Below are positions 5,069-45,898 of a DNA stretch of 64,000 nucleotides, one piece after another. This stretch comes from Chloroflexota bacterium (lineage in GTDB: Bacteria > Bacteroidota > Ignavibacteria > Kapaibacteriales > UBA2268). Below the pieces are notes generated by a model. That model saw only the letters and a program-made list of their open reading frames with translations, searched no databases and had not been told where the DNA came from. Made by a program: the position numbers and the translations under genes. The stretch covers positions 93,944-157,943 of the forward strand of contig JBLNBN010000039.1 in assembly GCA_050260015.1 (NCBI GenBank), in the 5' to 3' direction. The first letter of the stretch is position 1; each line of letters starts with the position of its first letter.

Positions 5069-5071
5069 AAA

Positions 5072-6748: not shown

Positions 6749-6865
6749 GAGCGGCAACGCTGAAAGCGGTTTGGTTAAAGCGAAATTGATCCGGAAAATA
6801 TAAGGGGCGGGGCGAAGGAACGCGCCGCCTCTTATTAAATTCAAAATTCAAAAATTGAGGAAGCA

Positions 6866-7228: not shown

Positions 7229-7255
7229 TTTCCTTTTTAGTTAACGGAGGACCGT

Positions 7256-8695: not shown

Positions 8696-8716
8696 TACCA
8701 TAAACCGGACATTGTT

Positions 8717-10140: not shown

Positions 10141-10272
10141 CGGGTATCGGGAGTTGGCGCCTCCTTTAATTAATCAATTTACGGCCCTTTCGTACGTTAA
10201 AATCAATATTCATATAAGAATTATTGAAATTTACTTATCTTGCAATACATTTATTGCATCAATCGGCGAAAG

Positions 10273-11217
10273 ATGAAAAAAAACAGGCAGAACGAAATTA
10301 AAGTCGGGTTAGTAACAATTTCTTCGATATTGCTCTTTATTATCGGCATTTCGCTAGGCAAGAGCTGCAGCGTCTCGGTGTCCGACCAAACGATTAAGAT
10401 GAGATTCCCAAATTCGGGCGGATTAAAGTCCTCCGATCCCGTCGTCGTCAACGGCGTGCGACGCGGCACGGTAACGGCCGTTCGCAACGAGGGCGGCGCA
10501 GTGCTCGTCGAAGCGACGCTCGACGATACGCGAGATCTCCGGGGAAACCCTACCGCCAAAATTACAATCCTGGAAATAACGGGCGGAAAAAAAGTTGAAA
10601 TCTTTCCCGGCGACAAGGGCGATTTCGATATAAATAAGGAAATTAAGGGCGAAACGCCCGCAGACCTCGCGGAATTAGTCGCCCTTGTCGGAGAAGTAAG
10701 CGGCGACGCCACTCGCCTTGTTCGCAGGCTCGATACGATAGCCGACGCGGGAACGAACCTGCTTGCCGACGGTAAGGTTGTCGCGGACCTTCGCAACGCC
10801 GCCGACGGGGCCTCGAGAATGGTGGCCAGCCTAAATAGATTAGTCGAGAGCAACTATTCCACGATTAATTCCAGCCTTGCGGACGTTAAGGCGATAACGA
10901 CCGAATTGCGCCTTGCGATAAGGGACAATAAACCGGGAATAGAACGACTTATAAAACAGCTCGACGTTACGGTCAACCGCGCGAATAACTTAATGATCGG
11001 CGCCGATACGGCCGTCGTCCAGGTGAATATGCTTCTTAAGGACCTAAATAGAATTACCGGCGACGTGCGCGGAGGCTCCGGGCTCGTTACTAAGTTGCTC
11101 TACGATGCGAAATTCGCGGCTTCGCTCGATTCGACCTTAACGCGATTATCCCTGTTCTTAAACAAAGTGGACGAGAACGGCATAAACGTGAATGTGAGAT
11201 TAGGCACCAGACCATAA
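10273..11217 (+). CDS. MlaD/MCE-family periplasmic substrate-binding protein (single N-terminal TM)
   Basis: N-terminal basic segment plus TM 'VGLVTISSILLFIIGISL', then an MCE-like region 'PVVVNGVRRGTVTAV'. ATG at 10273 (listed ORF starts at TTG 10240). Confidence 0.6.
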   Translation: MKKNRQNEIKVGLVTISSILLFIIGISLGKSCSVSVSDQTIKMRFPNSGGLKSSDPVVVNGVRRGTVTAVRNEGGAVLVEATLDDTRDLRGNPTAKITILEITGGKKVEIFPGDKGDFDINKEIKGETPADLAELVALVGEVSGDATRLVRRLDTIADAGTNLLADGKVVADLRNAADGASRMVASLNRLVESNYSTINSSLADVKAITTELRLAIRDNKPGIERLIKQLDVTVNRANNLMIGADTAVVQVNMLLKDLNRITGDVRGGSGLVTKLLYDAKFAASLDSTLTRLSLFLNKVDENGINVNVRLGTRP

Positions 11218-11227
11218 GGAAAGAAAT

Positions 11228-11890
11228 ATGTCTTATTCGATAACTCCCGTCCAGGGGGCGCTCGCGGAATACGTCCTGGAGAACTTTAGCTGCGAGGACG
11301 CATTATTAAAGGAATTGACCGCGCGATCGCTCGAAGCGAAGATGCCCCAGATAAATATATCACCCGAGCAGGGGCTTTTTCTTCAATTTTACCTGAAATC
11401 CATAAACGCGAAGCGCGTCGTCGAAATCGGAACTCTCGGCGGATACTCGGCGATAATTATGGCGCGCGCGCTGCCGGAGGACGGCAAGCTTACGACCGTG
11501 GAGATGGAACCCAGGCACGCCGATTTCGCGCGGGAAATGGTCGAACTCGCCGGGCTGGGCGACAGGATTGACGTGGTGACCCAGGACGGCCGGCAGTTCG
11601 TAGAAAATTATTCCGGAGGCGAGAATTCGCTCGATTTCGTATTCGTAGACGCGGATAAACCCTCCTATGCGAAATACCTTGACAAGCTAACGCCGGCGAT
11701 TCGCAAAGGGGGCGCATTTGCCGCCGATAACGCCTTTGCGTTCGGTTTTGTGGCCGACTCGGCGCCGGAGCGCGACCCGAGGGAGATAAAGTCTATAAAG
11801 AGCTTTAACGCGTACTTTAAGAGTAGGAAGGAATTCTTTACAAGCATCGTCGGGGTCGGCGACGGAATAATTATCGGGCTGAAATTGTAA
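11228..11890 (+). CDS. Class I SAM-dependent O-methyltransferase (caffeoyl-CoA OMT family 3)
   Basis: 'VVEIGTLGGYSAIIMA', 'DFVFVDADKPSYAKYL'. 10-nt gap after the MCE gene. Confidence 0.8.
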   Translation: MSYSITPVQGALAEYVLENFSCEDALLKELTARSLEAKMPQINISPEQGLFLQFYLKSINAKRVVEIGTLGGYSAIIMARALPEDGKLTTVEMEPRHADFAREMVELAGLGDRIDVVTQDGRQFVENYSGGENSLDFVFVDADKPSYAKYLDKLTPAIRKGGAFAADNAFAFGFVADSAPERDPREIKSIKSFNAYFKSRKEFFTSIVGVGDGIIIGLKL

Positions 11891-11992
11891 ATTGCCTTTC
11901 CGAATAAGTAGATTAAAAAAATAAGCGCTTAATGCGCAAGGCAAATGAAATGAATAAACGCGGCCTCGTTGTGTAATTTTTAAAATAAGACT

Positions 11993-13411
11993 ATGTCGAA
12001 AATATCTTTTTTTGTCATTCTCCTTGCCGCGGCTCTAGCCGCCGGATGCGGCGCGTCCCGTCCGCGAGGCTATGCGCTAACCGAGGAAAGCGACGAATTC
12101 GATTCGAGCGCGACCGGGATATACATCACGTCAACGTTGCCGATCGATTCGGCCGACGCCTCGAAGCTCGTATTTGATTTCTTTCGTTTAGAGACTAAGG
12201 AATATCCTGAAAACATCAGGATTTTCGCCCGCGTTTACGATTCCTCCGGCCATTTTATCACTAATATGGCCGATCCATACCGGGCCCCGGGGGCTCCAAA
12301 TTATTTCTCAAGCATTCGCGAAGATCTCGGGAAGGTCTACAATACGCGCAGCGAGCAGGTTAACCCGTTTAAGGTGCGCGAATACGGCGCGAAGGATTCC
12401 ATCCCATACAACATCGTTCTCACGATCGACTACAGCGGCTCCATGGCCGGCGTTATGGACGCTATTTACGAGGGCACGGAGCTCTTCGTAAATATGAAAA
12501 TGGATTTCGACCAAATCGGCATAACGACGTTCAATCAAAACGTGGACAGGAAAGTACCGATGAACAGCGACAAGCGAAGCATCATAAATCTATATCGCGC
12601 CAAACGCGACAAGGGATTCGGCCAGTTTTCCGCAGTCTTCGACGCTGTCGCCGACGCCGTATCGCAGTTTGGTCCCACGATTGATTCCGTCCCGAGAGTC
12701 CTTGTGTTGTTTTCCGACGGCGACGAGAATTACTCTAAAACGAAAATCGGCGAGTTGATCGACCAGGCTAAGAAAGAGGACGTGCACATATTCGCCGTGG
12801 GCTTCGGCTATTCGCAGGACGAGAATTTAAAATACATGGCGCAGTACACAGGCGGCAAGTTCTACAAAGCGCGCTCGAAGCAGGAGTTAATCGCCGTGTT
12901 CCGCGATATATACATGAGCCTGCGTTACTATTACCTAATTACTTACGATCCGCCGAATTACTGGGGTTATCACAAGGTAAACGCATACCTGAAGCATCCC
13001 GCCCGCGCGGACAGCCTGCTCGCTACCGGCGAATACGAAACGAGCGGCTTAATGCCCTGGGACAGCATCGGGCGCGCATTTACTCGACCAATCCTCTTCG
13101 ACTACAATGAAGCCACTTTAAAGCCCGAATCGCTGCCTATAATCGACGAGATAGTCGACGCGCTTCTATCCGCCCCGCGCTTAAAATTGGAGATACAGGG
13201 GCATACGGACGACATCGGCGGGATTGAATTTAATATGCGGCTTTCGGAAGCGCGCGCGCAGGCGGTAATGAACGCGCTTATAGATCGCGGCATAGACCCG
13301 AAGAGATTGCGCTCGCGCGGGTTCGGCTTCTCCAAGCCGATCGCGCCCAATACGGACGAGGCCGGGCGCGGAAAGAACCGCCGTACGGAATTCGTCGTTA
13401 TAGCGAAGTAA
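11993..13411 (+). CDS. vWA-domain / OmpA-domain fusion lipoprotein
   Basis: Lipobox 'LAAGCG'. vWA MIDAS 'VLTIDYSGSMAG'. C-terminal OmpA_C 'IQGHTDDIGGIEFNMRLSEARAQAV...NRRTEFVVI'. Confidence 0.8.
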   Translation: MSKISFFVILLAAALAAGCGASRPRGYALTEESDEFDSSATGIYITSTLPIDSADASKLVFDFFRLETKEYPENIRIFARVYDSSGHFITNMADPYRAPGAPNYFSSIREDLGKVYNTRSEQVNPFKVREYGAKDSIPYNIVLTIDYSGSMAGVMDAIYEGTELFVNMKMDFDQIGITTFNQNVDRKVPMNSDKRSIINLYRAKRDKGFGQFSAVFDAVADAVSQFGPTIDSVPRVLVLFSDGDENYSKTKIGELIDQAKKEDVHIFAVGFGYSQDENLKYMAQYTGGKFYKARSKQELIAVFRDIYMSLRYYYLITYDPPNYWGYHKVNAYLKHPARADSLLATGEYETSGLMPWDSIGRAFTRPILFDYNEATLKPESLPIIDEIVDALLSAPRLKLEIQGHTDDIGGIEFNMRLSEARAQAVMNALIDRGIDPKRLRSRGFGFSKPIAPNTDEAGRGKNRRTEFVVIAK

Positions 13412-13431
13412 ATCAATAAGCGTTATATCAA

Positions 13432-13472
13432 TATAAAAAAAAGTCCGCGAGCAGATCGCGGACTTTTTTATA
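13432..13472. terminator. Bidirectional rho-independent terminator between convergent genes
   Basis: A-run, stem AGTCCGCGA (13442-13450) / TCGCGGACT (13456-13464), then T-run. Confidence 0.7.
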
Positions 13473-13502
13473 TATAAATCAATTGATATGAATCGATTAG
13501 AA

Positions 13503-14060
13503 CTAATTATCGTTTACTGAGCGATAGAGGTCCTTAAGTCTCTTGCGGAGATGGAGCACTGCATAGCGTTTGCGCGCTAACAGGGTATTGATGTTAACCC
13601 CGGTGTCCTCGCTCATCTCGCGGAATGAGATGCCTTCGAACTCGTTCTTAACGAAGACGTCGCGTTGCTCGCTCGGCAGTTCGTCAAGGCCGGCTAAGAC
13701 GGATTCCCAAATAGTTTTGCGAATCAGGTCGCTCTCCGGGCTGCTTGAAATGTCGCCAAGAAAGTTTTCAAAAGCGTCTACGCCGTCTTCTGCCTGGCCG
13801 GGCGTCTGCATATCGGAGAATGTTTCGGCGCGCTTCTTCCTGTATGAATCTATAATTCTATTTCTCACTGCCGTAAAAACCCAAGAGGCTATATTTTCAA
13901 TCGGCTTTTGTACGTTGGCCGAGGCCGCAAGCACGTTCGTAAAAACGTCCTGCAAAATGTCCTCAGCCTCTTCCTGGCTGCGAACTCTTTGGCGTATAAA
14001 ACCTAAAAACTTTTTCCGATCGGTGCGGAACAACTGCTCTATTTGCAATGCTAGATCCAT
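13503..14060 (-). CDS. ECF-type RNA polymerase sigma-70 family factor
   Basis: Region 2 'AEDILQDVFTNVL...FTAVRNRIIDSYRKK'. Region 4 HTH 'FREMSEDTGVNINTLLARKRYAVLHLRKRL'. Start set at the Met of 'MDLALQ' preceded by AAAGGGG Shine-Dalgarno (listed ORF extends to 14159). Confidence 0.7.
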   Translation of the reverse strand: MDLALQIEQLFRTDRKKFLGFIRQRVRSQEEAEDILQDVFTNVLAASANVQKPIENIASWVFTAVRNRIIDSYRKKRAETFSDMQTPGQAEDGVDAFENFLGDISSSPESDLIRKTIWESVLAGLDELPSEQRDVFVKNEFEGISFREMSEDTGVNINTLLARKRYAVLHLRKRLKDLYRSVNDN

Positions 14061-14333
14061 TTCGTGCCCCTTTGTAGTTGTTTGCAAATTTTTAACTCTT
14101 TCCCCTGCGCGTGCGGTTTGCTCGCGTTTAACGTTTCTCTTCGTTGCTGCTACTTTCATAATTCACCGTTTTCGTTTACATGACAAATTAAGTAATTAAC
14201 CGTCTATGTATTCCCTCCTAAAATATTTACAATTTGCGCGCAATACTACCCTATAGACATTCAAAAAGCTAAAAGGTTTCAAAAAATCTAAAAGATATAT
14301 CAAAATTTACTTGAAAAACTATGCCACAGAGCC

Positions 14334-16340
14334 TTAAGCGTTAAAAAAGCCGTTAATCAGGTCTTCGTTCGGAATATTTGGCATAGTTACCTGTAATTTT
14401 GGCTCTTTTTCCATAGCTCGTTTAATTGCGAAGATCGCTTCCTTATTCCGCGCCCAGCTCCTGCGGGCAATACCATTGTTTACGTCCCAATGCAGCATTC
14501 GTTCAAGTCGCCTTCTGCAATCGTCGCCGCCGTCGAGGGTTAACCCGAAGCCGCCGTTGATAACTTCGCCCCAACCGACTCCGCCGCCGTTATGGATAGA
14601 AACCCACGTAGCGCCGCGGAACGAATCGCCGATGCAGTTTTGTACTGCCATATCGGCCGTAAAGCTCGAGCCGTCGTAAATATTCGATGTCTCGCGGTAG
14701 GGAGAATCCGTGCCCGATACGTCGTGATGATCTCTTCCCAGAACGATCGGGGCGCTTATCCTGCCTTCCGCTATCGCGCGATTGAACGCGCGGGCGATTT
14801 CAATTCTACCGTCGGCGTCGGCGTAAAGTATGCGCGCCTTGCTGCCGACGACTAAATTATTCTCTTTCGCTTGCTCTATCCAGAGCAAATTATCCTTTAG
14901 CTGCCCTTGAATTTCGGGCGGCGCGCCGGCGAGTAATTTTCTCAATACGTCGGCTGCTATTTTGTCAGTCTCGTCAAGGTCCTCCTGCTTACCGGAGGCG
15001 CAAACCCATCGGAACGGGCCGAAACCGTAATCGAAGCAGAGCGGGCCCATTATGTCCTCGACATAGCTCGGGTAGCGGAACCTACCGTCCGGTCGAAGGA
15101 TGTCGGCTCCGGCGCGGGCGGCTTCCAGTAGGAACGCGTTCCCATAGTCCCAGAAGTACATCCCGTTAGCGGTTAATTTATTAATAGCCGCTACCTGCCT
15201 TCGAAGCGATTCGCGTACGCGCTCGTGGAATTCCTGCGGTTTCGTTACCATTAACTCGTTGGATTCCTCAAGCGAAAGTCCTACGGGATAATATCCGCCG
15301 GCCCATGGATTATGCAGCGAGGTTTGGTCGCTGCCGAGCTCTATCTTGATACCGTCGGCCGCCAATCGTTCCCAGAGGTCGACCACGTTGCCGAGATAAC
15401 CGAGCGAGACGGCTTGCTTTGCCTTACGCGCGCTTTCCATTCTTTCAATGAGCTTTCCTAAATCCTCGTGCACTTCGTCGAGCCAGCCCTGCTCGAGCCT
15501 CTTGTAGAGGGCTTTAGGGTTGATCTCCGCCACGACGCAAACCGCGCCGGCGATGACGGCGGCTTTAGGTTGCGCGCCGGACATTCCGCCCAGGCCTGAA
15601 GTGACGTAAATTTTACCTGCCGCTTCGCCGTCGCCGTGCATGCGGGCGGCGTTCATAAGCGTGATCGTCGTGCCGTGGACGATGCCCTGCGGACCGATGT
15701 ACATGTACGAGCCTGCGGTCATCTGGCCGTATTGCGAGACGCCGAGCGCGTTAAATTTTTCCCAGTGGTCCTTGCTCGAGTAGTTGGGTATGACCATACC
15801 GTTCGTAACGACTACGCGGGGCGCATCCGGATGCGATGGGAAAAGCCCCATCGGGTGCCCGGAGTACATAACGAGCGTTTGCTCGTCGGTCATTTCCGCC
15901 AGGTACTTCATCGTGAGCAAGTATTGAGCCCAATTCTGAAAAACGGCCCCGTTTCCCCCGTACGTAATCAGCTCGTGCGGATGCTGAGCAACGGCGTCGT
16001 CCAAATTGTTCATTATCATTAGCATTATCGAAGCTGCCTGCTTGCTGCGATATGGGTACTCCTCGATATTGCGCGCGAAGATTTTATACTTCGGCTTGAA
16101 TCTGTACATATAGATCCTGCCATAAGTTTCAAGTTCCCGCGCAAATTCTGGCGCTAATTCACCGTGCATTTCCCCGGGAAAGTACCTGAGCGCGTTTTTC
16201 AGCGCGAGCTTCTTTTCCTCGGGAGTAAGTACGTCCATGCGCTTCGGCGCGCGACTTACGCTATCGTCGTATATATATGGTTCGGGCGTTTCCGCGGGTA
16301 TGCCGCGGAGTATCTCTTGTTTAAACGTCAAATTATCCAT
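14334..16340 (-). CDS. hutU: Urocanate hydratase, long (~668 aa) form
   Basis: 'GGMSGAQP' NAD-binding motif and the urocanase core. N-terminal extension typical of the long eukaryotic/Bacteroidetes-type enzymes. Confidence 0.9.
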   Translation of the reverse strand: MDNLTFKQEILRGIPAETPEPYIYDDSVSRAPKRMDVLTPEEKKLALKNALRYFPGEMHGELAPEFARELETYGRIYMYRFKPKYKIFARNIEEYPYRSKQAASIMLMIMNNLDDAVAQHPHELITYGGNGAVFQNWAQYLLTMKYLAEMTDEQTLVMYSGHPMGLFPSHPDAPRVVVTNGMVIPNYSSKDHWEKFNALGVSQYGQMTAGSYMYIGPQGIVHGTTITLMNAARMHGDGEAAGKIYVTSGLGGMSGAQPKAAVIAGAVCVVAEINPKALYKRLEQGWLDEVHEDLGKLIERMESARKAKQAVSLGYLGNVVDLWERLAADGIKIELGSDQTSLHNPWAGGYYPVGLSLEESNELMVTKPQEFHERVRESLRRQVAAINKLTANGMYFWDYGNAFLLEAARAGADILRPDGRFRYPSYVEDIMGPLCFDYGFGPFRWVCASGKQEDLDETDKIAADVLRKLLAGAPPEIQGQLKDNLLWIEQAKENNLVVGSKARILYADADGRIEIARAFNRAIAEGRISAPIVLGRDHHDVSGTDSPYRETSNIYDGSSFTADMAVQNCIGDSFRGATWVSIHNGGGVGWGEVINGGFGLTLDGGDDCRRRLERMLHWDVNNGIARRSWARNKEAIFAIKRAMEKEPKLQVTMPNIPNEDLINGFFNA

Positions 16341-23531: not shown

Positions 23532-24290
23532 CTATTGGGCGACGCGATTATTTCTATAATCGACTACGTCCGCTAGCAGCTTTGGTAAAACTTCTCCCGA
23601 CGTCCCCATTAGATGCGCGTCGGCATAGGGAGTTAGTGAAGTCCGGTTTACGTTTATCTCGACGACGAACGCGCCGCGTCTTTTTGCTAGAAGGGGCAAG
23701 CCTGCGGCCGGGTAGACGTCCGCCGACGTGCCTATCGAGAAGAAGACCTCCGCATTTTCCGCGGCGGCTTCCGCTTTAATGAGCGCCTCTTCGGGCAGGT
23801 TCTCGCCGAACCAAACGACGGCCGGGCGGACGAGTCCGCCGCAGCTTTCGCAACGCGGCAAGGAGCCGTCTTCGAAGCGCGTTTCGCCGACGTAGGGCCT
23901 GTGGCATTTAAAGCAGCGATTGTCCACTATATTGCCGTGCAATTCCACGACGTCGTGGGAGCCCGCCCGCGCATGCAGGCGATCGATGTTTTGAGTGATA
24001 AGCGTAAAGCTCTTAAAAAGCTCTTCCATCCGGGCAAGAGCGTAATGCCCTGGGTTCGGGCGGCTTTCGTCGATAACGGAGCGTCGGCTCTCGTACCAGG
24101 CCCAGACGCGATCCGGATTGGACATAAAGCCTTCGATAGAGGCCAGTTCGCGCGGGTTAAACTGCTGCCAGAGCCCCCCGGGGTCGCGAAAAGTTGCTAT
24201 CCCGCTCTCGGCGGATACCCCCGCCCCCGTGAGAGCGGCCACGCGCTCCGCCGAGGCGAGCTTTGAAACTAAAGTTTGATATGAATCCAT
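23532..24290 (-). CDS. cobB: NAD-dependent protein deacylase (Sir2/CobB)
   Basis: 'GAGVSAESGIATFRDPGGLW'. Zn-ribbon 'CFKCH...CESCGG'. 'VVWFGE'. Confidence 0.9.
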   Translation of the reverse strand: MDSYQTLVSKLASAERVAALTGAGVSAESGIATFRDPGGLWQQFNPRELASIEGFMSNPDRVWAWYESRRSVIDESRPNPGHYALARMEELFKSFTLITQNIDRLHARAGSHDVVELHGNIVDNRCFKCHRPYVGETRFEDGSLPRCESCGGLVRPAVVWFGENLPEEALIKAEAAAENAEVFFSIGTSADVYPAAGLPLLAKRRGAFVVEINVNRTSLTPYADAHLMGTSGEVLPKLLADVVDYRNNRVAQ

Positions 24291-24898
24291 AGCGGATACT
24301 TTCTAAAGATTGGACAAAAGCGAAAGCGCTCCAGGAGTAGACGAGCGAGGGCATAGCTTCATTATTGAAAAGACAATAAAAAAACGGTAAATTCTTTTTA
24401 ATAAACTTGACGCTATTATATATGTTAAGGGAGCGCTCATGGCGCCGTAAAATAAAAAATGACAAAACGCATTAATAAATGCGCATTAACTCCGTATGAA
24501 TTTTAGGTGAATCAAAAGGCGAAAAATAATATTTACTTCTAAGTCCTTGTAATGATAACTACTACAAATGAAGCGCGAGTTTAAAAAAAAAAAATTATTG
24601 TTATGAAATTAGAGTGAAACTTATTACTTTTAGAATGGAAATTACACTAAAACATTTAAGAAATCACGAAACCGTTAAAAATCTTTTGCATAATAGCGAC
24701 AATTGAAATAAATTGTAAAGCTATAAAATGCAATATTAAATAAAGACGACAGAATGCGCGGGTCGATGCCCTTCCCGCGCGCAGACTAACGCGGGAAGTT
24801 GGCGCAACCGAAGCGCGCCAACCCATGAAGAAAACAATATATATATTTAATTAATAAACGCTGGCTTATGCCAAAGCCAAGCGAAATGGAGGAATAAG

Positions 24899-27172
24899 AT
24901 GTCAAAAGGCGGTGGAGCAGGCAAGGTGTACTTTGTGCTTTACCTTGCGGTTGTTCTTGAATTGCTTATCATCATCGTCGAGCGCGACGAAGCCGAAGAA
25001 GGCTTGCATAAGAAGCAAAAGGAAACGATGAAAATCGTTGAATCCATTCTCTCCCAGCTTCAGTCGGGCGCAGGAACGGAAGGCATTAACACCCGTCCGC
25101 AAGACGAAATCACCATACCCCCGTCGGGCGTTAACCTGAAGGACGTTATGGGCGCGGATATTAAATCCTTCCGTAAATACCTCGTAGAAGTCGGCGTTAC
25201 CGACGTCAGCGCGGCTATTAAACGTAAAGAGGGCGAAACGGAGAAAGAGCATACGCTTCGTATCCAGAAACTTGTCGAACTCGCTAACGTCGACCAGCTG
25301 CAATATCAAGTTTTCTTTAATTCGAGCCAGGACCCGGCTTCCGCGCCAATATTCCCTACGGAAGAGGCGCTTAAAGACCAGGGGATTGACTTTATGACGC
25401 TCGGCGTTGGAGCTTCCGTTTCCGATCCCCGCGAACCCGGTTCCACGTGGGAATTTATGGGCGTCCAGGAATTACTGCTCGATAAAGAAGCTACTTTTAA
25501 TAATTTAGACTTGAGAAACCTTACGGCTTCTTCTCTCGCACCGATTTACAAATCGAAGATCATTCATGGCCCTTCGTTTGTCCCAAGCGGTCAGGGCGAG
25601 GATAAAGCCTTCTATTATAATGACACCCTTTCGCGCAAGAGCCTTGCCGCGGGTACCAGCATGAAAAAACGCGTATTCGAAGTTAACTTCCAGCCGCCGA
25701 ACAGACCGGGTTGGTACAAGCTTCGCTTCGCTTCGCGCACGAACAGGATCCTCGGTATCAGCGCGGCCGTTAAGCCCGCCGAGCTGAGCGACGAAGCCAC
25801 GGTTAACATCGGCACCGTCCAATTAACCGTTCGCGACCTCCGCCGCGTTCAAAAAGAGCTTTCGAACACCCTGGAGAAATATCAATTACCCGCTGGCGAA
25901 GTTCTTATCGTCGAGCAGAACATTGATAAATTCGAAACTGGCCTCGAACGCTCCCGCAACCTGGCAATGAAGGACGACAACGCTTCGGAAGTAATCGGTA
26001 AGATCAATTTATATGGATATATCATTAAGCTCCTCGCTCCCGGTCAATCGATCAACTTCGAACAGAACAAGGGCGCAATGGAATTCAATATCCGCGTCAT
26101 CACGCCGAAGCCCCAGCTCGCCGAGCCTGCTATCGTTATGCAGACCTACGTAGCAAGCTTCGACAAGGTGGCTGCCGCCTTCGAATTCTCCGTCAGCCCC
26201 TACCAGGAAGGCCAGAACGCAATCGAAGGTCGCGTAATCGATAACAACAAGGCTACGGTAGCCCGCATTACGTTCCAACCCCGCGACCAGATCGCAGGCT
26301 CCGGCGTAACGGCCCCCGTTCGCGGCGGCACGCGTCTCTACCAGGGAACCGTCTCGCAGAATCTCTCGCCGGGCAAGTACCAGATAGAGATCGTTCATAA
26401 GCTGAGCGGAAAGTCCCGCACGGAAGTCGGCGACCTCGAGATCTTCCCGACGCGCCTGACCCCGGAAAGCGAGAAAGGAATAAAAGACCGCTTTAGGGCC
26501 TATACGTTCTATGGATATCCCGTACAGATAAACGCTGTGCCCAGCTCCGGCGGTAAGATCAAGCCTGACCAGTTCAGACTTTACATAACGACGGACAACA
26601 ACTCGCAACGTCCTCCTATACAGGGCCTGGTAACGGAGAAAGACAACGTGCTTACTCTTACTCCGGAGTCGAAGAAGGTCAGCTTGCGCGTAACCTGGAT
26701 ACAGCCGTTCACCGGCCAGGAAGTCGACCTGCTCCCGACTATTACGGAAGACATCAAGCAGGAAGAGCCGAAGATCTCGGTTAGAAACCTCTCTCCGGAC
26801 ATAACCGGTACGGCGGCCACCGTTAAGATCACCGTTCGCGGCATACAGATATCGCCTCCCGGAACGGGCAGCAACAAGGATGCTAACATACAGGTTAGAA
26901 TCGCGGGCGAACCTAAGGTCGACATAACGGGCTACACCTCGAAGATCGAACCTACGATCGACGAAGAAGGCGAAGGCAAGTACACGATCTACCTTGAATT
27001 GGGCGGCAAGCTCGAGCGCGGCAAGGACAAGATAAGCGGCACGGTAATAATACCGATCTCGGCCGTAGCTATCAACCCGATCAACGGCGTTCGAAGCGAT
27101 CCTCAACCGCAGCAGATACAGGTACCGATTAACTTCTCGCCGGACCGCGGCGGACCTCAAAGAAGAAGGTAA
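24899..27172 (+). CDS. Bitopic inner-membrane protein with large periplasmic beta-rich region (757 aa)
   Basis: Single TM 'VYFVLYLAVVLELLIIIV' with an embedded Glu. GGAGG Shine-Dalgarno 8 nt upstream. Arg-rich C-terminus 'PQRRR'. No known domain recognised. Confidence 0.6.
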   Translation: MSKGGGAGKVYFVLYLAVVLELLIIIVERDEAEEGLHKKQKETMKIVESILSQLQSGAGTEGINTRPQDEITIPPSGVNLKDVMGADIKSFRKYLVEVGVTDVSAAIKRKEGETEKEHTLRIQKLVELANVDQLQYQVFFNSSQDPASAPIFPTEEALKDQGIDFMTLGVGASVSDPREPGSTWEFMGVQELLLDKEATFNNLDLRNLTASSLAPIYKSKIIHGPSFVPSGQGEDKAFYYNDTLSRKSLAAGTSMKKRVFEVNFQPPNRPGWYKLRFASRTNRILGISAAVKPAELSDEATVNIGTVQLTVRDLRRVQKELSNTLEKYQLPAGEVLIVEQNIDKFETGLERSRNLAMKDDNASEVIGKINLYGYIIKLLAPGQSINFEQNKGAMEFNIRVITPKPQLAEPAIVMQTYVASFDKVAAAFEFSVSPYQEGQNAIEGRVIDNNKATVARITFQPRDQIAGSGVTAPVRGGTRLYQGTVSQNLSPGKYQIEIVHKLSGKSRTEVGDLEIFPTRLTPESEKGIKDRFRAYTFYGYPVQINAVPSSGGKIKPDQFRLYITTDNNSQRPPIQGLVTEKDNVLTLTPESKKVSLRVTWIQPFTGQEVDLLPTITEDIKQEEPKISVRNLSPDITGTAATVKITVRGIQISPPGTGSNKDANIQVRIAGEPKVDITGYTSKIEPTIDEEGEGKYTIYLELGGKLERGKDKISGTVIIPISAVAINPINGVRSDPQPQQIQVPINFSPDRGGPQRRR

Positions 27173-27183
27173 CGCTTAGAAGC

Positions 27184-27231
27184 GCGCAAAGCGCCCCGAA
27201 TTTGAACGGGGCGCTCTGCGCAGCTTTTTTC
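27184..27231 (+). terminator. Rho-independent terminator after the 757-aa membrane protein gene
   Basis: 14-bp stem GCGCAAAGCGCCCC / GGGGCGCTCTGCGC with one mismatch, followed by AGCTTTTTT. Confidence 0.6.
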
Positions 27232-27309
27232 ATTAGATAACAACTAAAAAATAAACGCTCCGTGTCTTATAAATTTTATAGAACCGTGAAAATTAAGGGC
27301 ATAAATAAA

Positions 27310-29055
27310 ATGACAAAAAAATTCTTAGTTCCCGCGCTACTTGCAGCGATCCTGCTTGCTGCGGCGCCCGGCACGCAACTTCGCTCCCAAGGAGACGAGG
27401 CGTTCCGTATCAAGCTGGAGAGCATTTTTTATAAATTCAAGAATTACCGCTTTTCCACTATCTCCATTTACAGATTGCGCGACATCAAAGACATCCGTAA
27501 CGCAATCAAGGCCAGGGAAGACGCCCAGGCGGGCGGCGGCGAAGTCAAAGAAGGCAACGCCGATTGCGTCAATAAAGCCGACCGGGCTATTACCTCGCTT
27601 GTTGAGAGCGAAGTAAACCAGGGAGCCTCATTCCTCGGAGTTCAACGCGCGTTGCTGACTCGCGGTTTGGACGCCCCTGCGGATTTGCAGTGCATCTACG
27701 ACTACTATATGAGCCGCACGCAAGTCGCCGTTAAGCAGATTAAAAACGTTTACGCAGTTACTACCCGTATGTCCGACCGCGACCAGATGGTGCCGTCGAC
27801 CATTATCGGCGTTATCGTCTCCTACGATGATAACGAAGACATTAAGCGTAACGTCGACCCTGCGAACCCTACAAACATCTTTACGTACCCTGAGCTCGTT
27901 TCCTTCGAACTCGATCCGGGAACGTACCGCGCCAATAATCTTTATGAATTGGTGCAAAACTCTTTCCGCCAGAACAACGTTGAAAATAAAACGCTTGAAG
28001 CCCAGGGAATTGGAACCTTCATGCGTTTCGCTCCTCCGAAGTACGGCACGTCGCTCTCGCTCATTTCCAGCGAAGCTGAAATTACTTCCTACGACGTCCA
28101 GAACTTCATACGCATCAGCGAAGGCCAACCGCAACAAATGACCAAGAACAACGAGGTCATCGTTAGCCCCGACCTTATTAGCTGGCGTCAATACCAGGGT
28201 GAGTACTATACTAACGAAGACGGCACGGTAGACACCATCTCCTCCGTTACCAATCATAACTTGCCGAAGATCGGCGTAGAGCTTCGCTACGGCATCGAAG
28301 AGATTAACTATCCTTCGCTTTGGAGCGAACGCCTCACGTTGTCGGCTCTATGGAAGAACGTAAAATTAGGCTTAATACTTCCCACAGCCGGATGGAGCTC
28401 TATGACGAGCGACCTCTTCGAGGTTGAGCGCAAGCTAACCCACGGCGGAACCGGCGTTGCCGGCCAGGCGGACTTCCCTATGCCCGTCATTCCAAATTCC
28501 GGGATATTCCACTTTAGCTTAGGCTACGTATTCGGCAACGCTAAGCCCGCTTCCTACAAGAATCGCGACTTAACCCCCGATAACTTCCCGACTGGCGGCA
28601 TCGATCCTACTAATCTGTTTTACAACGATTACCTCGTTAGATTTAACGGCCAATTCCACTATACGTTCGGAATCGCAATTGACGACGATTACTTACTGCG
28701 CTTCGGCATCGGCGCTACAGCATACACGATGGAACGTTGGACGGACGCGCTCGAGTTGAATCCTGAAACCGGCGACAAGGTAGTATTCCGTAAAGCTGGC
28801 GAAGAAACCGTCGGCGGTCTCTCCGGGAAAATTGAATTCATGAGCACGAACGTTTCGACTCCTTACGGAGCCTCGGCGCAATACTTTGACGAAGGAATTT
28901 ACGGCAACGTTTGGTTGCAAATTCCGGTAATAGAAAATACGTTTGCGCTTCGTCTTGACGCAAAGGGCTACTTTAAGCCTTTCGCAGACGAACCGCGCCC
29001 ATGGGAAAACGACAGCGTCTTCCTTCCCTCGGCGCGTCTTATAGTCAATTTCTAG
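27310..29055 (+). CDS. Predicted outer-membrane beta-barrel-like protein (paralog 1)
   Basis: Signal peptide 'MTKKFLVPALLAAILLAAAP'. Alternating hydrophobic C-terminus ending 'SARLIVNF' with terminal Phe. Confidence 0.5.
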   Translation: MTKKFLVPALLAAILLAAAPGTQLRSQGDEAFRIKLESIFYKFKNYRFSTISIYRLRDIKDIRNAIKAREDAQAGGGEVKEGNADCVNKADRAITSLVESEVNQGASFLGVQRALLTRGLDAPADLQCIYDYYMSRTQVAVKQIKNVYAVTTRMSDRDQMVPSTIIGVIVSYDDNEDIKRNVDPANPTNIFTYPELVSFELDPGTYRANNLYELVQNSFRQNNVENKTLEAQGIGTFMRFAPPKYGTSLSLISSEAEITSYDVQNFIRISEGQPQQMTKNNEVIVSPDLISWRQYQGEYYTNEDGTVDTISSVTNHNLPKIGVELRYGIEEINYPSLWSERLTLSALWKNVKLGLILPTAGWSSMTSDLFEVERKLTHGGTGVAGQADFPMPVIPNSGIFHFSLGYVFGNAKPASYKNRDLTPDNFPTGGIDPTNLFYNDYLVRFNGQFHYTFGIAIDDDYLLRFGIGATAYTMERWTDALELNPETGDKVVFRKAGEETVGGLSGKIEFMSTNVSTPYGASAQYFDEGIYGNVWLQIPVIENTFALRLDAKGYFKPFADEPRPWENDSVFLPSARLIVNF

Positions 29056-29117
29056 GATAAATCATCGTTCAACTAATTAACTGTATTGTCTATTACTTGG
29101 AAAGAAAAATAATAATT

Positions 29118-30539
29118 ATGAAAAAATACCTCGTAGCCTTATTAGTGATATTGAGCTTTGCCGTTGTGAAGGCTCAAGACATCGTGGACAGACAGGGCAT
29201 AATCGACTCGTTGACGACAATCGACCCTGAAATACAACGTTACTTCCCCCGTTGGAAGGTATGCGAACCCGATTTACAGATACAGATCTGGCAGTCTTTC
29301 GTATACCGCGGCGACGATAAGAGCAAATTAAGCCGGGACAACATTGAAATATTAGCCGCTCCGCGCGAATATGATACCGATCCGTTCGAGATCTTAATGA
29401 TCACTTGCGGACAGAGCTCTATGAATTCCGTCGAGATCGAGGCCACCATGGGCGACATCTTGCTCGGCTTCCTCTCCGGCGACATGGTTTACCAGGGCGA
29501 AATGCGCGGCGAACGCAATAGAGTAGCTAAAAGAGACTATTGCTATACGGACATTCCGATAGACATTCCGCTTACCTCCTCGCAAGCCGAAGTAATAATT
29601 AACTACCTCGAGCCGACGAACGTGACTCACGCTTTCTCGATTTCTCTCTTCGAGCAATCCCTGAAAGTTGGCGAAACTGGCTTCTGGCTGCGCAATCAAA
29701 TCGGTACCGATCGTATCGGCTACCATTTTTGGCAGAGCGGCGAATCCAAGATCGTTCTTCAAAGACCTCTTTACGTAAACGACGACTCGAGAACCCGCGG
29801 CGGCATCCCGTACCTTATCAACGCCTACCTAGGCGGCGCTTACAGGGTTAAGAGCGGTCTCGCTAATTCTACGCCCGTGCTCAGCTGGATCGGCCAGCGC
29901 AAGCTCAATAGCGTATCCGACGGTAAATTTGTCGGCGGCTTTGACTTCCACATGCCGTTCAACCCCGAAACCGGCGTTAGCTTAAATCTTGAATTACCCT
30001 TTAAGAGAGTGCAACCGCAAAATATAGCTCTATCGGAATATTTTGTTTACGCTCCGTTAGAAGATGGCGCAGTAAACCTCTACGACGGCTCTCCCGTCAA
30101 TTTCATAGCTCCCGTTCTTCGTTCCTCCGGCCAATTCACCGGTTTTTACCACTGGTGGTTGGACAGGAAGAACCCCGAAAACTATATCCGCTTCGACGCA
30201 GGTATCAGCTACGCGGAAGTTCGTGAAATGGCAATCGTCGGCGATTCCGTAAGCGGCTCATGGACTATGACCAACGAGGCTACGGGTCTTCGCACCTTCA
30301 AGCCTAAAGAATTCGGCGACTACGTTTACCTTAAGGTAGAATACCGTAATCAAGCCGCTTACCCGTTCGGCATGAGCGCTCAATACTCGAACCAGATCTT
30401 CTTAGGCAGGGTTTACATCCCGCTCTTTAGCAACTGGCTCTACCTCGAGGGCAAGTTCTCGACACCGTTGCGCGGCGTTAGACCCTTCGAGCAAGAGAAT
30501 TTCTTTATGATATCGCCGGTATTAAGGCTGACTATCTAA
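29118..30539 (+). CDS. Predicted outer-membrane/secreted protein (paralog 2)
   Basis: Signal peptide 'MKKYLVALLVILSFAVVKAQ'. C-terminal region is similar to the upstream gene ('GRVYIPLFSNWLYLEGKF...ISPVLRLTI' vs 'GNVWLQIPVIENTFALRLDAKGYF...SARLIVNF'). Confidence 0.5.
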   Translation: MKKYLVALLVILSFAVVKAQDIVDRQGIIDSLTTIDPEIQRYFPRWKVCEPDLQIQIWQSFVYRGDDKSKLSRDNIEILAAPREYDTDPFEILMITCGQSSMNSVEIEATMGDILLGFLSGDMVYQGEMRGERNRVAKRDYCYTDIPIDIPLTSSQAEVIINYLEPTNVTHAFSISLFEQSLKVGETGFWLRNQIGTDRIGYHFWQSGESKIVLQRPLYVNDDSRTRGGIPYLINAYLGGAYRVKSGLANSTPVLSWIGQRKLNSVSDGKFVGGFDFHMPFNPETGVSLNLELPFKRVQPQNIALSEYFVYAPLEDGAVNLYDGSPVNFIAPVLRSSGQFTGFYHWWLDRKNPENYIRFDAGISYAEVREMAIVGDSVSGSWTMTNEATGLRTFKPKEFGDYVYLKVEYRNQAAYPFGMSAQYSNQIFLGRVYIPLFSNWLYLEGKFSTPLRGVRPFEQENFFMISPVLRLTI

Positions 30540-30652
30540 TTTGGCGATTCGAATCTGAAATATTCCCCCAACGATTAATAAATATTATATAGTTGGGGGA
30601 AATTTTTTTATTAATTTTGGACTTTCAGCAATAGCATAATCAGGGATATAGA

Positions 30653-31996
30653 ATGCAGCATTGGACTATAAAGCGCTCGCTTTTTTTACTCGCAGTACTA
30701 GCCGCTACTTTTAACCTTGCGCACGCGCAAAACGATCGAAAGCAGGTCAACGAAGACTCATTGCGAAAAGAATTGCTTGAGGACGCTAAGGTAACGGCAG
30801 CTAGAAAAGAAATTGAAATTACTGTGCGCAGCGTGGATATAAGCAAATTCCCCCAGGTTAAGATCATAATTGAGGCTTATAATAAATTAGGCGAACCCCT
30901 GGATAGTCTTACTAGCGAGAACCTCTGGGTTTACGAGAACGGCGTTCAGAAAAAGGTTCTCGAGGTTAGGAAAATACCCGTTGCGGACCAAATCGCCGTC
31001 GACTTCGTCCTTCTAATGGATAGAACGGGCTCGATGCAACAGAACATTAACGCAGTTCGCTCGAACATATCTACGTTCAGCCGCAACCTTATGAAGCGCG
31101 GTATCGATTCACGCCTGGGTCTTATTATTTTCGGGGATGAAATAGACAAAGTCTATCAACCGACTAACAATATTCTTACATTTCTTGATTGGATATCCCC
31201 GTTGCAAGCGCAGGGCGGCGGCGACGAGAAGGAAAACGCGCTCGAAGCGCTGGAAGCTCTCGCAAAGATCAACTGGCGAAGAGAAGCTATTAAGGTGGCC
31301 GTTCTAATCACCGACGCGCCGTACCACCAGGCAGGCGAAGAGGGGTTCGGGCTAACTAATCAAACGACGAATTCAATAATCGAATTGATGCAGCGCAACG
31401 AAATTCGCGTGTTCTGCATCGTCCCGCCGAGGCTGACCGGCTACCAAACTATCGCAACGAAAACGAGGGGCAGCGCGTTCGATATCGATTATCCCTTTTC
31501 CACTATATTGGATAACTTTTCAAACCAGCTGACAAACCTGTTCTCCTTAACGTACAACTCCGGCCAAAGCGCACTACCGGATTCTATCGAGATAGCTCTC
31601 TTTAATAAAGGCCAGCAACGCCTGGTAAAGAAGACTATTCCTATTGTTGAATTGGGCCGAAAGCTGATCATCGAGAACCTGCTCTTTGAGACTAACAAGT
31701 TTACTCTACCAGATAACGTCGGGGAATTAAATCTTTTGGCTGATTTTCTCCGCGCTAAATCGACGGTGGAGATACTTATTGAAGGACATACCGACAACGT
31801 GGGCAGCGCTTCGGTAAACTTAAAGCTTAGCGAACTGCGCGCGCAGGCGGTAAAGGAATACCTGGTAAAGAAGGGGATTGCGGACGCGAGGATCCAAACG
31901 AAGGGCTTTGGGAAAACTAAACCAATAGCTACAAATAAAACTGAGTTTGGGCGTCAGCTCAACCGTCGAACCGAGATTGTGATACTTTCAAAATAA
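30653..31996 (+). CDS. vWA-domain / OmpA-domain fusion protein (paralog of 11993-13411)
   Basis: Signal peptide. MIDAS 'FVLLMDRTGSMQ'. OmpA_C 'IEGHTDNVGSASVNLKLSELRAQAV...NRRTEIVIL'. Confidence 0.8.
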   Translation: MQHWTIKRSLFLLAVLAATFNLAHAQNDRKQVNEDSLRKELLEDAKVTAARKEIEITVRSVDISKFPQVKIIIEAYNKLGEPLDSLTSENLWVYENGVQKKVLEVRKIPVADQIAVDFVLLMDRTGSMQQNINAVRSNISTFSRNLMKRGIDSRLGLIIFGDEIDKVYQPTNNILTFLDWISPLQAQGGGDEKENALEALEALAKINWRREAIKVAVLITDAPYHQAGEEGFGLTNQTTNSIIELMQRNEIRVFCIVPPRLTGYQTIATKTRGSAFDIDYPFSTILDNFSNQLTNLFSLTYNSGQSALPDSIEIALFNKGQQRLVKKTIPIVELGRKLIIENLLFETNKFTLPDNVGELNLLADFLRAKSTVEILIEGHTDNVGSASVNLKLSELRAQAVKEYLVKKGIADARIQTKGFGKTKPIATNKTEFGRQLNRRTEIVILSK

Positions 31997-32261
31997 AATC
32001 ATCGCCCGTTTCCCGTTCGCGATCAATAAATTCCCGGACGGCGGGCTTGACGAACATATCGTCGCTATTTCCGGCTGAAGCGAGACAACGTGCAAATATA
32101 TTTGCCGCCGCTTCAGCCGATGTGTTTTTGTTCAACAGGACGACCTTTTCTTCGTTAACGTAGCAGAATCCGCTCTTAAATCTACCGGAATCCCGCCTGA
32201 TCTTAAATCCCTGGGACTTTACCAATTCCTCTAATTCGCTGGCTATTTCCTTTATCTTCAT
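31959..32261 (-). CDS. Hypothetical small protein (100 aa)
   Basis: Start codon overlaps the stop of the upstream membrane-protein gene (ATGA). 3' end overlaps the convergent vWA-OmpA gene by 38 nt. Confidence 0.35.
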   Translation of the reverse strand: MKIKEIASELEELVKSQGFKIRRDSGRFKSGFCYVNEEKVVLLNKNTSAEAAANIFARCLASAGNSDDMFVKPAVREFIDRERETGDDFILKVSQSRFDG

Positions 32262-32824
32262 TCGACGATTTCCTTAGCCGCTATCGCTTCGGCTTTGCTT
32301 TGTGAAAGCGGTCGCCATATTACGTAAAGCAAGGCAGTGAGATTTGCCAAAAATGCAAGGCTCGTGCCGGTCGTAAAAGCGACGTTCTTAAATCTCGGTA
32401 TCAGGTAGTTTTGGATCGCCGGATCAGCAAAATCCTTGACGTTTCCATAATATACCGCCAGGCTTAACTTTACGTCCATCCAAAGGAGGTAAAGTTCCAT
32501 CGGCGAAGCTAAAAAGAAAAGTATAAACGCCATAAACAGCCACCCCTCGCGCTTCATTTGCTTTCTTAGCAAGAAGAATAAAACTATCGCTGTAAGGAAA
32601 GCCGCAATATAGGCAACGCCTGGATAGAGCGCGAGCGTAGCGAACAGGTACGCGGAATGCATACGTATTTCGTTCGTATAATGCGTTTTAAGAAGCATAT
32701 CGGCCGTGGGGTAGAATAAGTCGAACCCTACCGCCGAACGTACTAAATTGCCTCCAAACCATATTAAAAAGCCGATTGAAAAAGCAGTGAGCAGTATTTT
32801 TACGAGTTTTGTGTTGTAATGCAT
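32258..32824 (-). CDS. Hypothetical polytopic membrane protein (188 aa)
   Basis: At least 5 hydrophobic helices. No motif recognised. Confidence 0.5.
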   Translation of the reverse strand: MHYNTKLVKILLTAFSIGFLIWFGGNLVRSAVGFDLFYPTADMLLKTHYTNEIRMHSAYLFATLALYPGVAYIAAFLTAIVLFFLLRKQMKREGWLFMAFILFFLASPMELYLLWMDVKLSLAVYYGNVKDFADPAIQNYLIPRFKNVAFTTGTSLAFLANLTALLYVIWRPLSQSKAEAIAAKEIVE

Positions 32825-44518: not shown

Positions 44519-45898
44519 ATGAAAAGTTTCGCCGTCCTATTCTTTGCCGCAGTGTTGTTGCTACCGGGCTTCGGAAAAGCCGTGTGCGCCGATAAATACG
44601 TAAATCCCATAGGAGAGGACTGGATAACTATCGATTCCGCCGATAGGGAATTGGTTCCTGCGGAGGACTGGGTGAATTATTATAGATATCTTGTCTGCTC
44701 AGATTCTCTCAATTGCCTTGGTATGATTGATTTAGGTAATATGTCCCATTACCTCTTTCGAAGAACTACCGACGGGGGCTTAACCTGGGAAAATATTAGC
44801 GTCGATAGCAGCGATTGCATGATATACCCTCATATTATGGCTATGCCGGACAAAAATACTGCTTTATTGCTCGGCGATACCGGAGTCGTTCTAAGATCAA
44901 CTAACGGCGGATATTCATGGAACGCGGCAAAAATACCGGGATTTAATGCGGAAAAGTACTGGTTCAATCATTTATTTATGAAGGGCCCCATCGGAATTGC
45001 TCAATACGGAGCCTCGGATTGCTATATGACCGAGGACGGCGGCGCAAGCTGGAGCAAAATGGAAATTAATGTTGAGCCCGACTTGAAATATTCAATCTCC
45101 CATTTGTCAATACTCGATTACAACAATTTCATTATGTGGGGCATCCACCATGATTATGATAAAGATAGCATAGTGACCGGAGAATTTAGCTGCTATTATA
45201 CTACCTCGGACAGGGGAAAAACCTGGAACCTATTTAAGATGCTACCCTACGACGAGGATCGTTACCACAAATTTACGTTCTTCAACAGTAAAATGGGCTT
45301 TTCCTCTTACCAAACGACAAGAAAAAAAACCAGCGATCAAGAATACGATACAGTGACGACTTATATTTACAAAACACACGATGGAGGAAACGCCTGGAAT
45401 GAGATATTTAGGGATATAAATCCTTACTACGGCTATCAAACGGTCTTTTTCGATTCTTTGCATGCCATTGGCCGCGACAATTACGGGAAGTGTATAATAA
45501 CGAGCGACGGCGGTTACAACTGGAAAAAAACGGATTGGGTTAAATACGAAAACAATCAGTATGGATACTATTCTTTAGCTACGGCATACTTAACGCCGGA
45601 AACTCCATTAATCACTAATGGCGTAAAGGTTCTTAAATACGTAGGGAAGAATAAATCAATTCGCGACGCCGCTCCGCCAAGCGAAACTATCTTCATCAGC
45701 CCAAACCCCGCGTCCGAGTTTATATCAATAACGCCCTCGCCAACCGGCGTGAAGGCGCCTATTGAAATATATTCGAACCTGGGCTTGCTTGCTCTCTCTT
45801 CTCCGAACGAAGCGGGAAGGATAGACGTTGCCCGGTTGCCCGCGGGCGTTTATTTTATCAAGATAGGAACGCAGGTAGCGAAATTTGTGAAGATATAA
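44519..45898 (+). CDS. Secreted BNR/Asp-box repeat (Ycf48/sortilin-like beta-propeller) protein with C-terminal T9SS sorting domain
   Basis: Signal peptide. Six '[ST]xDGGxxW' repeats. C-terminal tail 'ISPNPASEFISI...GVYFIKIGTQVAKFVKI'. Confidence 0.75.
   Translation: MKSFAVLFFAAVLLLPGFGKAVCADKYVNPIGEDWITIDSADRELVPAEDWVNYYRYLVCSDSLNCLGMIDLGNMSHYLFRRTTDGGLTWENISVDSSDCMIYPHIMAMPDKNTALLLGDTGVVLRSTNGGYSWNAAKIPGFNAEKYWFNHLFMKGPIGIAQYGASDCYMTEDGGASWSKMEINVEPDLKYSISHLSILDYNNFIMWGIHHDYDKDSIVTGEFSCYYTTSDRGKTWNLFKMLPYDEDRYHKFTFFNSKMGFSSYQTTRKKTSDQEYDTVTTYIYKTHDGGNAWNEIFRDINPYYGYQTVFFDSLHAIGRDNYGKCIITSDGGYNWKKTDWVKYENNQYGYYSLATAYLTPETPLITNGVKVLKYVGKNKSIRDAAPPSETIFISPNPASEFISITPSPTGVKAPIEIYSNLGLLALSSPNEAGRIDVARLPAGVYFIKIGTQVAKFVKI

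Follow-up and report, generated by a model that had tools for sequence, protein, structure and literature searches.

Which envelope structure, if any, is encoded by the four-gene locus at positions 24899–31996 of the 64-kb stretch of DNA analysed here (the whole of which is referred to as the window)? A first-pass annotation had described this locus as four co-directional genes that belong together and whose products would reach across the cell envelope. The genes, here called g1, g2, g3, and g4, do correspond to four open reading frames (ORFs), all on the + strand, with 757, 597, 480, and 447 codons when the longest ORFs are taken (24899–27172, 27262/27310–29055, 29097/29118–30539, and 30653–31996, respectively). 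They are genuine genes and not chance ORFs, each having full-length orthologues of 40–60% identity in well over 100 contigs. The reading favoured here, to which we assign a probability of about 0.5, is that g1–g4 form one lineage-specific envelope complex that joins the inner and outer membranes with the peptidoglycan between them. The observations that bear on it are the gene unit, the folds and domains of the proteins, the pattern of conservation, and the predicted locations. These locations (g1 in the inner membrane, the stalk of g1 and g4 in the periplasm and wall, and g2 and g3 in the outer membrane) together cover the envelope from the inner membrane through the periplasm and peptidoglycan to the outer membrane, in agreement with what had been proposed.

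The gene unit extends well beyond this genome. Synteny was counted with hidden Markov models built from orthologues, in 89 distinct loci holding at least 5.3 kb of sequence 3' of g1. The module is present in 87 of these loci, with the exact order g1–g2–g3–g4 in 85, and two of the 89 carry one additional copy each (an extra g4-like gene in one case, and three barrels plus g4 in the other). The module is also kept where g1 is only 25–30% identical (loci L086, L164, and L165, the last of these with three barrels), and the divergent L088/L165 (12024–17144) encodes three barrels plus a vWA-OmpA protein. The flanking genes vary, the commonest family being found in at most 21 of approximately 80 loci, and they are mostly housekeeping genes on the opposite strand. 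Neither a recurrent neighbour nor a linked motor gene (MotA/ExbB/TolQ/GldL-like) was found in the module neighbourhood of these ~80 loci. Because the order of g1–g4 is conserved in 85 of 89 loci while the flanks differ, the four genes are, as judged from gene order, a self-contained and vertically inherited module. The claim that they belong together is thus borne out.

The inner-membrane component, g1 (24899–27172, + strand), is a 757-residue single-pass (bitopic) protein. Its sole hydrophobic segment covers residues 10–28 (Kyte-Doolittle 2.55) and contains Glu21, whose codon lies at 24959–24961; the sequence of the membrane helix is VYFVLYLAVVLELLIIIV, with neither Ser nor His. The cytoplasmic tail comprises nine residues (1–9) with two Lys, and an acidic ERDEAEE stretch stands just past the helix, so that g1 is expected to be oriented N-in, with its bulk in the periplasm. 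In an AlphaFold2 model built with 26 homologues, with a mean predicted local distance difference test (pLDDT) score of 81, a single unbroken helix runs from residue 7 to residue 56, and is followed by a low-confidence linker (56–67), alpha/beta and beta structure (69–310), a helical segment (311–386), and approximately four immunoglobulin (Ig)-like beta-sandwiches. The latter occupy residues 390–750, most of them at pLDDT >85 (residues ~391–750 correspond to 26069–27148). Both the anchoring of g1 by one N-terminal membrane helix with a Glu and the long, beta-rich periplasmic region had been read from the sequence, and the model agrees with them.

Conservation along g1 is strikingly uneven. Residues 1–75 (24899–25123) constitute a near-invariant N-terminal module, which takes in the membrane helix (10–27), the ERDEAEE stretch, a stalk that continues as a helix up to residue 56, and an invariant linker, GTEGINTRPQDEITIPP. 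Across 82 orthologues, the identity to the window protein is 98.6% at residues 10–27, 87% at 28–56, and 95% at 57–75 (a linker that is modelled as "disordered", yet is conserved to this degree), while the remaining regions show 41–59%, with approximately 41% in the C-terminal Ig-like array. Glu21 is invariant in 26 aligned sequences as well as in the divergent members, and subfamilies of 540–650 residues that are only 25–30% identical overall keep the same N-terminal 40–75 residues. Four-fold synonymous sites in codons 10–75 are 24% identical, which equals random expectation; therefore, the constraint acts at the protein level, and an RNA-level cause of the invariant 5' end of g1 is ruled out. 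Every face of the helix is conserved almost absolutely, with the Glu buried in it, which speaks for a protein environment all around. In the same way, the fact that the most constrained part of g1 is the membrane helix with the Glu would fit its enclosure within a membrane-embedded protein complex.

Outside its own family, g1 has no recognised relatives. Its homologues number more than 650, every one of them annotated as hypothetical, and a profile search returned just 211 clusters among 1.84 billion representative proteins; for this reason, g1 is regarded as a narrow family and not as an outlier of a large one. It matched nothing in Pfam, NCBIfam (no families at E<=1), or a PDB profile search; PDB sequence-profile searches with g1, g2, and g3 gave nothing below E 0.07, and a Pfam scan across all members of the three alignments yielded isolated chance matches only. 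Thus, the remark that none of the four proteins matched a named family by eye is borne out for g1, g2, and g3 in Pfam and NCBIfam, g4 being a VWA plus OmpA protein. As a TolA/TonB protein, g1 lacks the SHLS motif in the helix, has no TolA_III or TonB_C Pfam match, and ends in Ig-like domains, while as an AsmA/TamB protein it has no AsmA/DUF490 Pfam match and is modelled as discrete Ig-like sandwiches without a beta-taco groove. [quoted passage not shown]

The two following genes encode the predicted outer-membrane components. The likely starts are ATG 27310 for g2 (27310–29055, + strand, 581 residues, with the ORF reaching upstream to GTG 27262) and ATG 29118 for g3 (29118–30539, + strand, 473 residues, with the ORF reaching upstream to TTG 29097). 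Both are preferred because they yield standard signal peptides, and that of g2 also because its product is then identical to ACM3U1_06970, a 581-residue protein in GenBank that comes from a metagenome-assembled genome (MAG) bearing the label Chloroflexota. Signal peptides are present in both proteins, as had been claimed. The model of g2 (pLDDT 74) consists of an alpha/beta N-terminal domain of approximately 250 residues (~30–270), separate from a barrel of about 14 strands (~281–581). This barrel is of the FadL type, its nearest structural relatives being members of the FadL family. Residues 372–578 of g2 align with residues 259–472 of g3 in hhalign (probability 86%, E 4.9e-6), and BLASTP between both proteins gives E 3e-4, which confirms the mutual similarity of their C-termini. 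On this alignment, g3 is a paralogue of g2 over its last ~200 residues, i.e., the C-terminal half of the barrel, and a barrel fold would extend to g3 by its relation to g2; the earlier description of both C-termini as barrel-like agrees with the modelled structure in g2 and with kinship in g3. The prediction that one of the pair ends in Phe applies to g2, where this is the last residue in 70 of 74 orthologues, while g3 ends in Ile or Leu. The N-terminal domain of g3 holds conserved Cys residues and an FPRWKVCEPD motif. Pfam gave no match, Toluene_X included, for 24 members of the g2 family and 20 of the g3 family. Neither protein matched an NCBIfam or Pfam model of a T9SS barrel (PorV/PorQ/PorP) at E<=1, and g2, g3, and their orthologues had no NCBIfam match and no PDB sequence match.

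The last gene, g4 (30653–31996, + strand), encodes a periplasmic protein of 447 residues, in which a signal peptide and a small N-terminal domain are followed by a vWA domain and then by an OmpA_C domain. Pfam VWA matches residues 117–257 (31001–31423; E 2.9e-10, 41.1 bits against a cut-off of 23.8), VWA_4 (44.4 bits) and VWA_2 also lie above their gathering scores, and Pfam OmpA matches residues 344–438 (31682–31966; E 2.4e-22, 79.5 bits against a cut-off of 27.2). Conservation in 64 orthologues extends to the metal-ion-dependent adhesion site (MIDAS), with D123-x-T125-x-S127 and D221, and to the OmpA_C domain, with GHTDN, the TDxxG...N..LS..RA pattern, and NRRTE. The earlier description of g4 as a vWA-OmpA lipoprotein stands with respect to its domains and falls with respect to the lipid anchor. 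The signal peptide ends AHA/Q, the first Cys does not occur before residue 255, and a lipobox is found in none of the 64 orthologues; for these reasons, g4 is predicted to be a soluble periplasmic peptidoglycan binder and not a lipoprotein.

What we infer beyond these observations concerns the protein–protein contacts, the stoichiometry, and the physiological role of the module, and would run as follows. The membrane helix of g1 would hold the protein in the inner membrane while packed inside an assembly formed by further g1 copies or by a conserved partner. Its stalk would extend into the periplasm, starting with a helix that leads through two domains of alpha/beta or beta structure and a helical hairpin to the Ig-like domains, about four in number, with a chain length sufficient for crossing the periplasm. 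As paralogous FadL-type barrels, g2 and g3 may constitute an outer-membrane platform, whose large N-terminal domains, predicted to be periplasmic because the barrels are even-stranded, would be where g1 probably docks with its distal end. Being a soluble periplasmic adaptor, g4 would bind the peptidoglycan through its OmpA_C domain, while its vWA/MIDAS site might clamp an acidic residue of g1, g2, or g3 and thereby fix the complex to the wall. A platform role for this type of barrel has a precedent in BamG, a FadL-family subunit of the BAM (beta-barrel assembly machinery) complex, and FadL-type barrels of Bacteroidota act as anchoring platforms and not as transporters (PMC12611786). No literature on the module itself was found. 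A second case of a FadL-type barrel that works as a platform rather than as a transporter is PorV.

Several points weigh against such a complex. The N-terminal domain of g2, to which a docking function is assigned, is modelled with moderate or low confidence only. Furthermore, g4 is not beside the barrels at the ordinary locus L137 and at the divergent L161; the latter (11725–14970) is very divergent, and has two g3-like barrels and no adjoining vWA-OmpA gene. Every carrier found is an uncultured MAG, with no named isolate or cultured carrier among the matches. Finally, a purely static tether provides no obvious need for a helix that is 98.6% identical and holds an invariant Glu.

This last point is where an energised alternative begins. 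According to it, g1 would belong to an ion-driven 5:2 motor, either as its arm (like TolA, TonB, or GltG) or as its inner subunit (like MotB or ExbD), and the ring of the ExbB/TolQ/MotA type would be encoded elsewhere; proton flow through this ring, possibly involving Glu21, would move the periplasm-spanning stalk and thereby perform work at the g2/g3 platform (secretion, surface movement, or outer-membrane remodelling). The contrast between a helix identical on all faces around an invariant Glu21 and the 41–59% identity of the rest of the protein, with randomised synonymous sites, counts in favour of this alternative, and since the cytoplasmic tail is only nine residues long, any energy input must pass through the membrane. 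In GldLM, the central GldM helices lie wholly within protein, without lipid exposure, and their buried surfaces are highly conserved (bioRxiv 10.1101/2020.05.11.089193). Likewise, the helices of unlinked bitopic proteins have been proposed or predicted to dock on TolQR-like motors; among them, the membrane helix of GltG, a protein likened to TolA, has been modelled docked on the AglR5QS motor (PMC11761067). The gene neighbourhood speaks differently, as none of the ~80 loci links the module with a MotA/ExbB/TolQ/GldL-like gene, and g1 has no Pfam match to ExbD, MotB_plug, TolA, or TonB. Glu21 is located two thirds along the helix, towards the periplasmic end, whereas MotB, ExbD, and TolR hold an Asp near the cytoplasmic end of theirs. 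In addition, polar residues within membrane helices can simply promote self-association, which explains the same data. We therefore regard this alternative as a tentative possibility. Its most specific form, in which g1 is the force-transmitting subunit of an unrecognised ion-driven machine, with its helix in or on a 5:2 ring of the ExbB/TolQ/MotA type encoded elsewhere, is doubtful. If it were true, this machine would drive movement or conformational work at a dedicated platform of two FadL-type barrels, with the vWA-OmpA protein as a stator-like wall anchor, and the module would be a new system of Kapabacteria and Ignavibacteria standing alongside Ton, Tol, the flagellar motor, GldLM, and Agl-Glt.

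The remaining alternatives assign the same genes to known kinds of machinery. That they encode a transport system, with g2 and g3 as FadL-type channels for hydrophobic compounds or lipids and g1 as a periplasmic conduit or scaffold, is compatible with a chromosomal module that is widespread in its lineage and preceded by a promoter-like site resembling sigma-70, but appears unlikely. No Toluene_X/FadL Pfam match was obtained, the N-terminus of g2 is a separate 250-residue domain instead of a short hatch, neither inner-membrane transporters nor catabolic genes are linked at the ~80 loci, and the role of a vWA-OmpA protein would stay unexplained. AsmA/TamB and Lpt proteins use beta-taco or beta-jellyroll grooves, and Ig-like arrays are not known to act as lipid conduits. 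It is very unlikely that the locus is a divergent T9SS/gliding module, where g1 would be the GldM/PorM analogue, g2 and g3 PorV/PorQ/PorP-like barrels, and g4 a PorE-like anchor, even though the genome encodes T9SS cargo (Por_Secre_tail proteins at 44519–45898 and 58166–59581), the 244–381 domain of g1 recurs in the T9SS-sorted proteins P0357, P0361, and P0385, and g1 shares with GldM/PorM a single-pass architecture with periplasm-spanning Ig-like domains. PorE has an essential OmpA_C-like domain (PMC12773672). Nevertheless, no Pfam or NCBIfam match to the GldM, PorV, PorP, or PorE families was found; GldM_N and the other GldM models of both databases gave nothing at E<=1 for g1, and no relevant match among 14 family members. 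The faint likeness of g1 to the GldM/PorM N-terminal helix noticed in the first-pass annotation was not supported on comparison, as hhalign of the g1 N-terminus against four GldM/PorM N-termini from PDB entries gave probabilities of 0.03–0.09%, and g1 lacks the helix motif RQKMINLMYLV with R9 and Y17. Moreover, a pattern search through the 1,855 ORFs of the retrieved loci detected no N-terminus like that of GldM or GldL, no gldK, gldL, or gldN gene lies near the module, and FadL and TodX outscore PorV as relatives of the barrel. A literature search returned nothing usable on T9SS or gld genes in Kapabacteria or Ignavibacteria. Least probable of all is an accessory scaffold of the flagellar motor, i.e., a peptidoglycan-anchored ring or tether around the stators, like MotY, FlgT, or PflAB. 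Flagellin, FliS, FliD, and FlaG genes do occur in the window (5795–9118), and the OmpA_C domain of g4 gives sub-threshold scores to MotB/MotY-type models. However, the module is 16 kb away from these filament genes and shows no flagellar linkage at other loci, a sigma-28 motif precedes g1 in just 1 of 138 loci, and the OmpA_C matches are generic across the family.

With regard to regulation, the gap between g1 and g2 holds a GC-rich hairpin followed by U6 (27178–27230, + strand), which folds with −35.5 kcal/mol (z −5.0) and is equalled by none of 200 shuffled sequences. The hairpin that had been read as a strong terminator after g1 is thus real in this genome, and resembles an intrinsic terminator or attenuator. 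As a conserved element it was rejected, because a comparable hairpin with a T-run follows g1 in only 9 of 119 related loci, and most relatives have a gap of 20–70 nucleotides without any hairpin. In this genome, g1 may be expressed differently from g2–g4, but the suggestion that differential expression is a property of the system is not supported, the hairpin not being conserved.

Upstream of g1, TTGCAT-N17-TAAATT within ATAAATTGTA (24686–24715, + strand; found by motif search) is a candidate promoter that resembles sigma-70 sites. The pattern TTG-N17-22-[AT]TAAATTG has this single match in the 64-kb window, and an ATAAATTG(TA) motif lies 40–300 nucleotides 5' of g1 in approximately 45 of 136 related loci. 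Upstream of g1 in the window and in loci L001–L163, the motif is often preceded by a TTG element (cTTGt) about 19 nucleotides earlier. From its position, the transcript would have a long untranslated 5' leader. Searches 5' of g1 gave no consensus for sigma-28 or sigma-54, and an Rfam scan of 24000–32400 gave no match.

The window is chromosomal and also encodes YidC, the RNase P protein, ATP synthase subunits, and flagellar filament genes; the GC content of the module region is similar to that of the rest of the window. On its 5' side, g1 is preceded by an AT-rich intergenic region of 600 bp and a SIR2-family gene in divergent orientation, while convergent genes, among them one for an enzyme of the 5-enolpyruvylshikimate-3-phosphate (EPSP) synthase family (PF00275), follow g4. 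A second vWA-OmpA protein is encoded at 11993–13411 (472 residues, 24% identity to g4, E 6e-26). Unlike g4, it has a lipobox (LAAGC), and its gene adjoins those for an O-methyltransferase (11228–11890) and an MlaD-domain protein (10240–11217). In about ten related genomes, similar-looking genes are found just 3' of the module on the opposite strand, their products being a ~480-residue protein with a lipobox and two that resemble O-methyltransferases and MlaD, respectively, a likeness judged from N-terminal sequences only. The Por_Secre_tail proteins of the window indicate that the genome should encode a T9SS somewhere, and the filament cluster that the organism is probably flagellated. The regions 3683–5701 and 56472–57686 hold ORFs of 461, 209, and 404 residues without Pfam match, the first two directly 5' of the flagellin gene.

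As for the distribution of the module, a scan with one genome per species (185,579 species) identified relatives of g1 in 291 genomes. The best 80 of these 291 belong to Kapabacteria, Ignavibacteria, Chlorobiota, Chloroherpeton, or unclassified Bacteroidota MAGs, apart from a few with implausible labels (Hyphomicrobiales, Desulfobulbaceae), and a metagenome scan seeded with a divergent subfamily added 80 further loci. Public labels of Hyphomicrobiales, Desulfobulbaceae, or Chloroflexota are carried by L005, L009, L010, L014, and others, as well as by P0121. Since their module genes are typical of Kapabacteria and Ignavibacteria, such bins are probably mislabelled.

Few envelope-spanning machines of diderm bacteria are known (Tol-Pal, Ton, Lpt, secretion systems, GldLM/T9SS, and Agl-Glt), and each has been instructive about how two membranes and the wall are coupled. 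The module described here seems to be universal in one lineage of the Fibrobacterota-Chlorobiota-Bacteroidota (FCB) superphylum, a lineage of class rank whose members are mostly uncultured. As a passive tether, it would represent another way in which bacteria without Lpp staple the outer membrane to the wall and the inner membrane; if coupled to a motor, it would be a new output device for the 5:2 motor family. Either way, three new families gain a structural hypothesis that can be tested.

Compared with those systems, g1 resembles ExbD, TolR, and MotB in having a single N-in membrane helix that contains a conserved acidic residue and is the most conserved part of the protein. It differs from them in holding a Glu nearer the periplasmic end instead of an Asp, in being three to five times longer, and in lacking both an ExbD or MotB periplasmic domain and an adjoining ExbB/TolQ/MotA gene. 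With Tol-Pal, the module shares a bitopic inner-membrane protein that has a very short cytoplasmic tail and an extension reaching across the periplasm (TolA), an OmpA_C-type peptidoglycan binder at the outer-membrane side (Pal), and the would-be role of linking both membranes and the peptidoglycan. However, no sequence relation between them was found. The helix of g1 has a Glu and no SHLS motif, its stalk is made of Ig-like domains whereas that of TolA is a long helix, g4 has a vWA domain and no lipid anchor, and the operon includes two FadL-type barrels and no tolQR.

The T9SS and gliding machineries, which belong to the same superphylum and whose cargo genes are present in the window, also combine a single-pass protein with periplasm-spanning Ig-like domains, 14-strand FadL-type platform barrels, and an OmpA_C anchor. 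In GldLM, the acidic residue is E49 of GldL, which pairs with R9 of GldM (bioRxiv 10.1101/2020.05.11.089193), whereas in the module it is placed on the single-pass protein g1, with no GldL, GldK, or GldN nearby. The Agl-Glt machinery of Myxococcus (GltG/J, GltA/B/H, and CglB) contains two mutually dependent outer-membrane barrels (GltA and GltB) alongside a protein with a vWA/MIDAS site. It also has bitopic inner-membrane proteins of which long portions are periplasmic and whose membrane helix has been proposed to dock on a TolQR-like motor (PMC11761067). Nevertheless, it belongs to another phylum, shows no detectable homology to the module, and comprises at least 17 parts, including cytoplasmic ones; furthermore, CglB is a surface-exposed lipoprotein adhesin without OmpA_C, while g4 is periplasmic and predicted to bind peptidoglycan. 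In comparison with FadL, TodX, and BamG, g2 and g3 lack a Toluene_X match and have N-terminal domains of ~200–270 residues where those proteins have a short hatch or tail. By analogy, the logic of the module would resemble that of Tol-Pal, or of the GldM/PorV-PorP/PorE part of the T9SS, although it is a member of neither. Of its components, only g4 belongs to a described family, while the folds are familiar and follow the familiar logic of a trans-envelope bridge.

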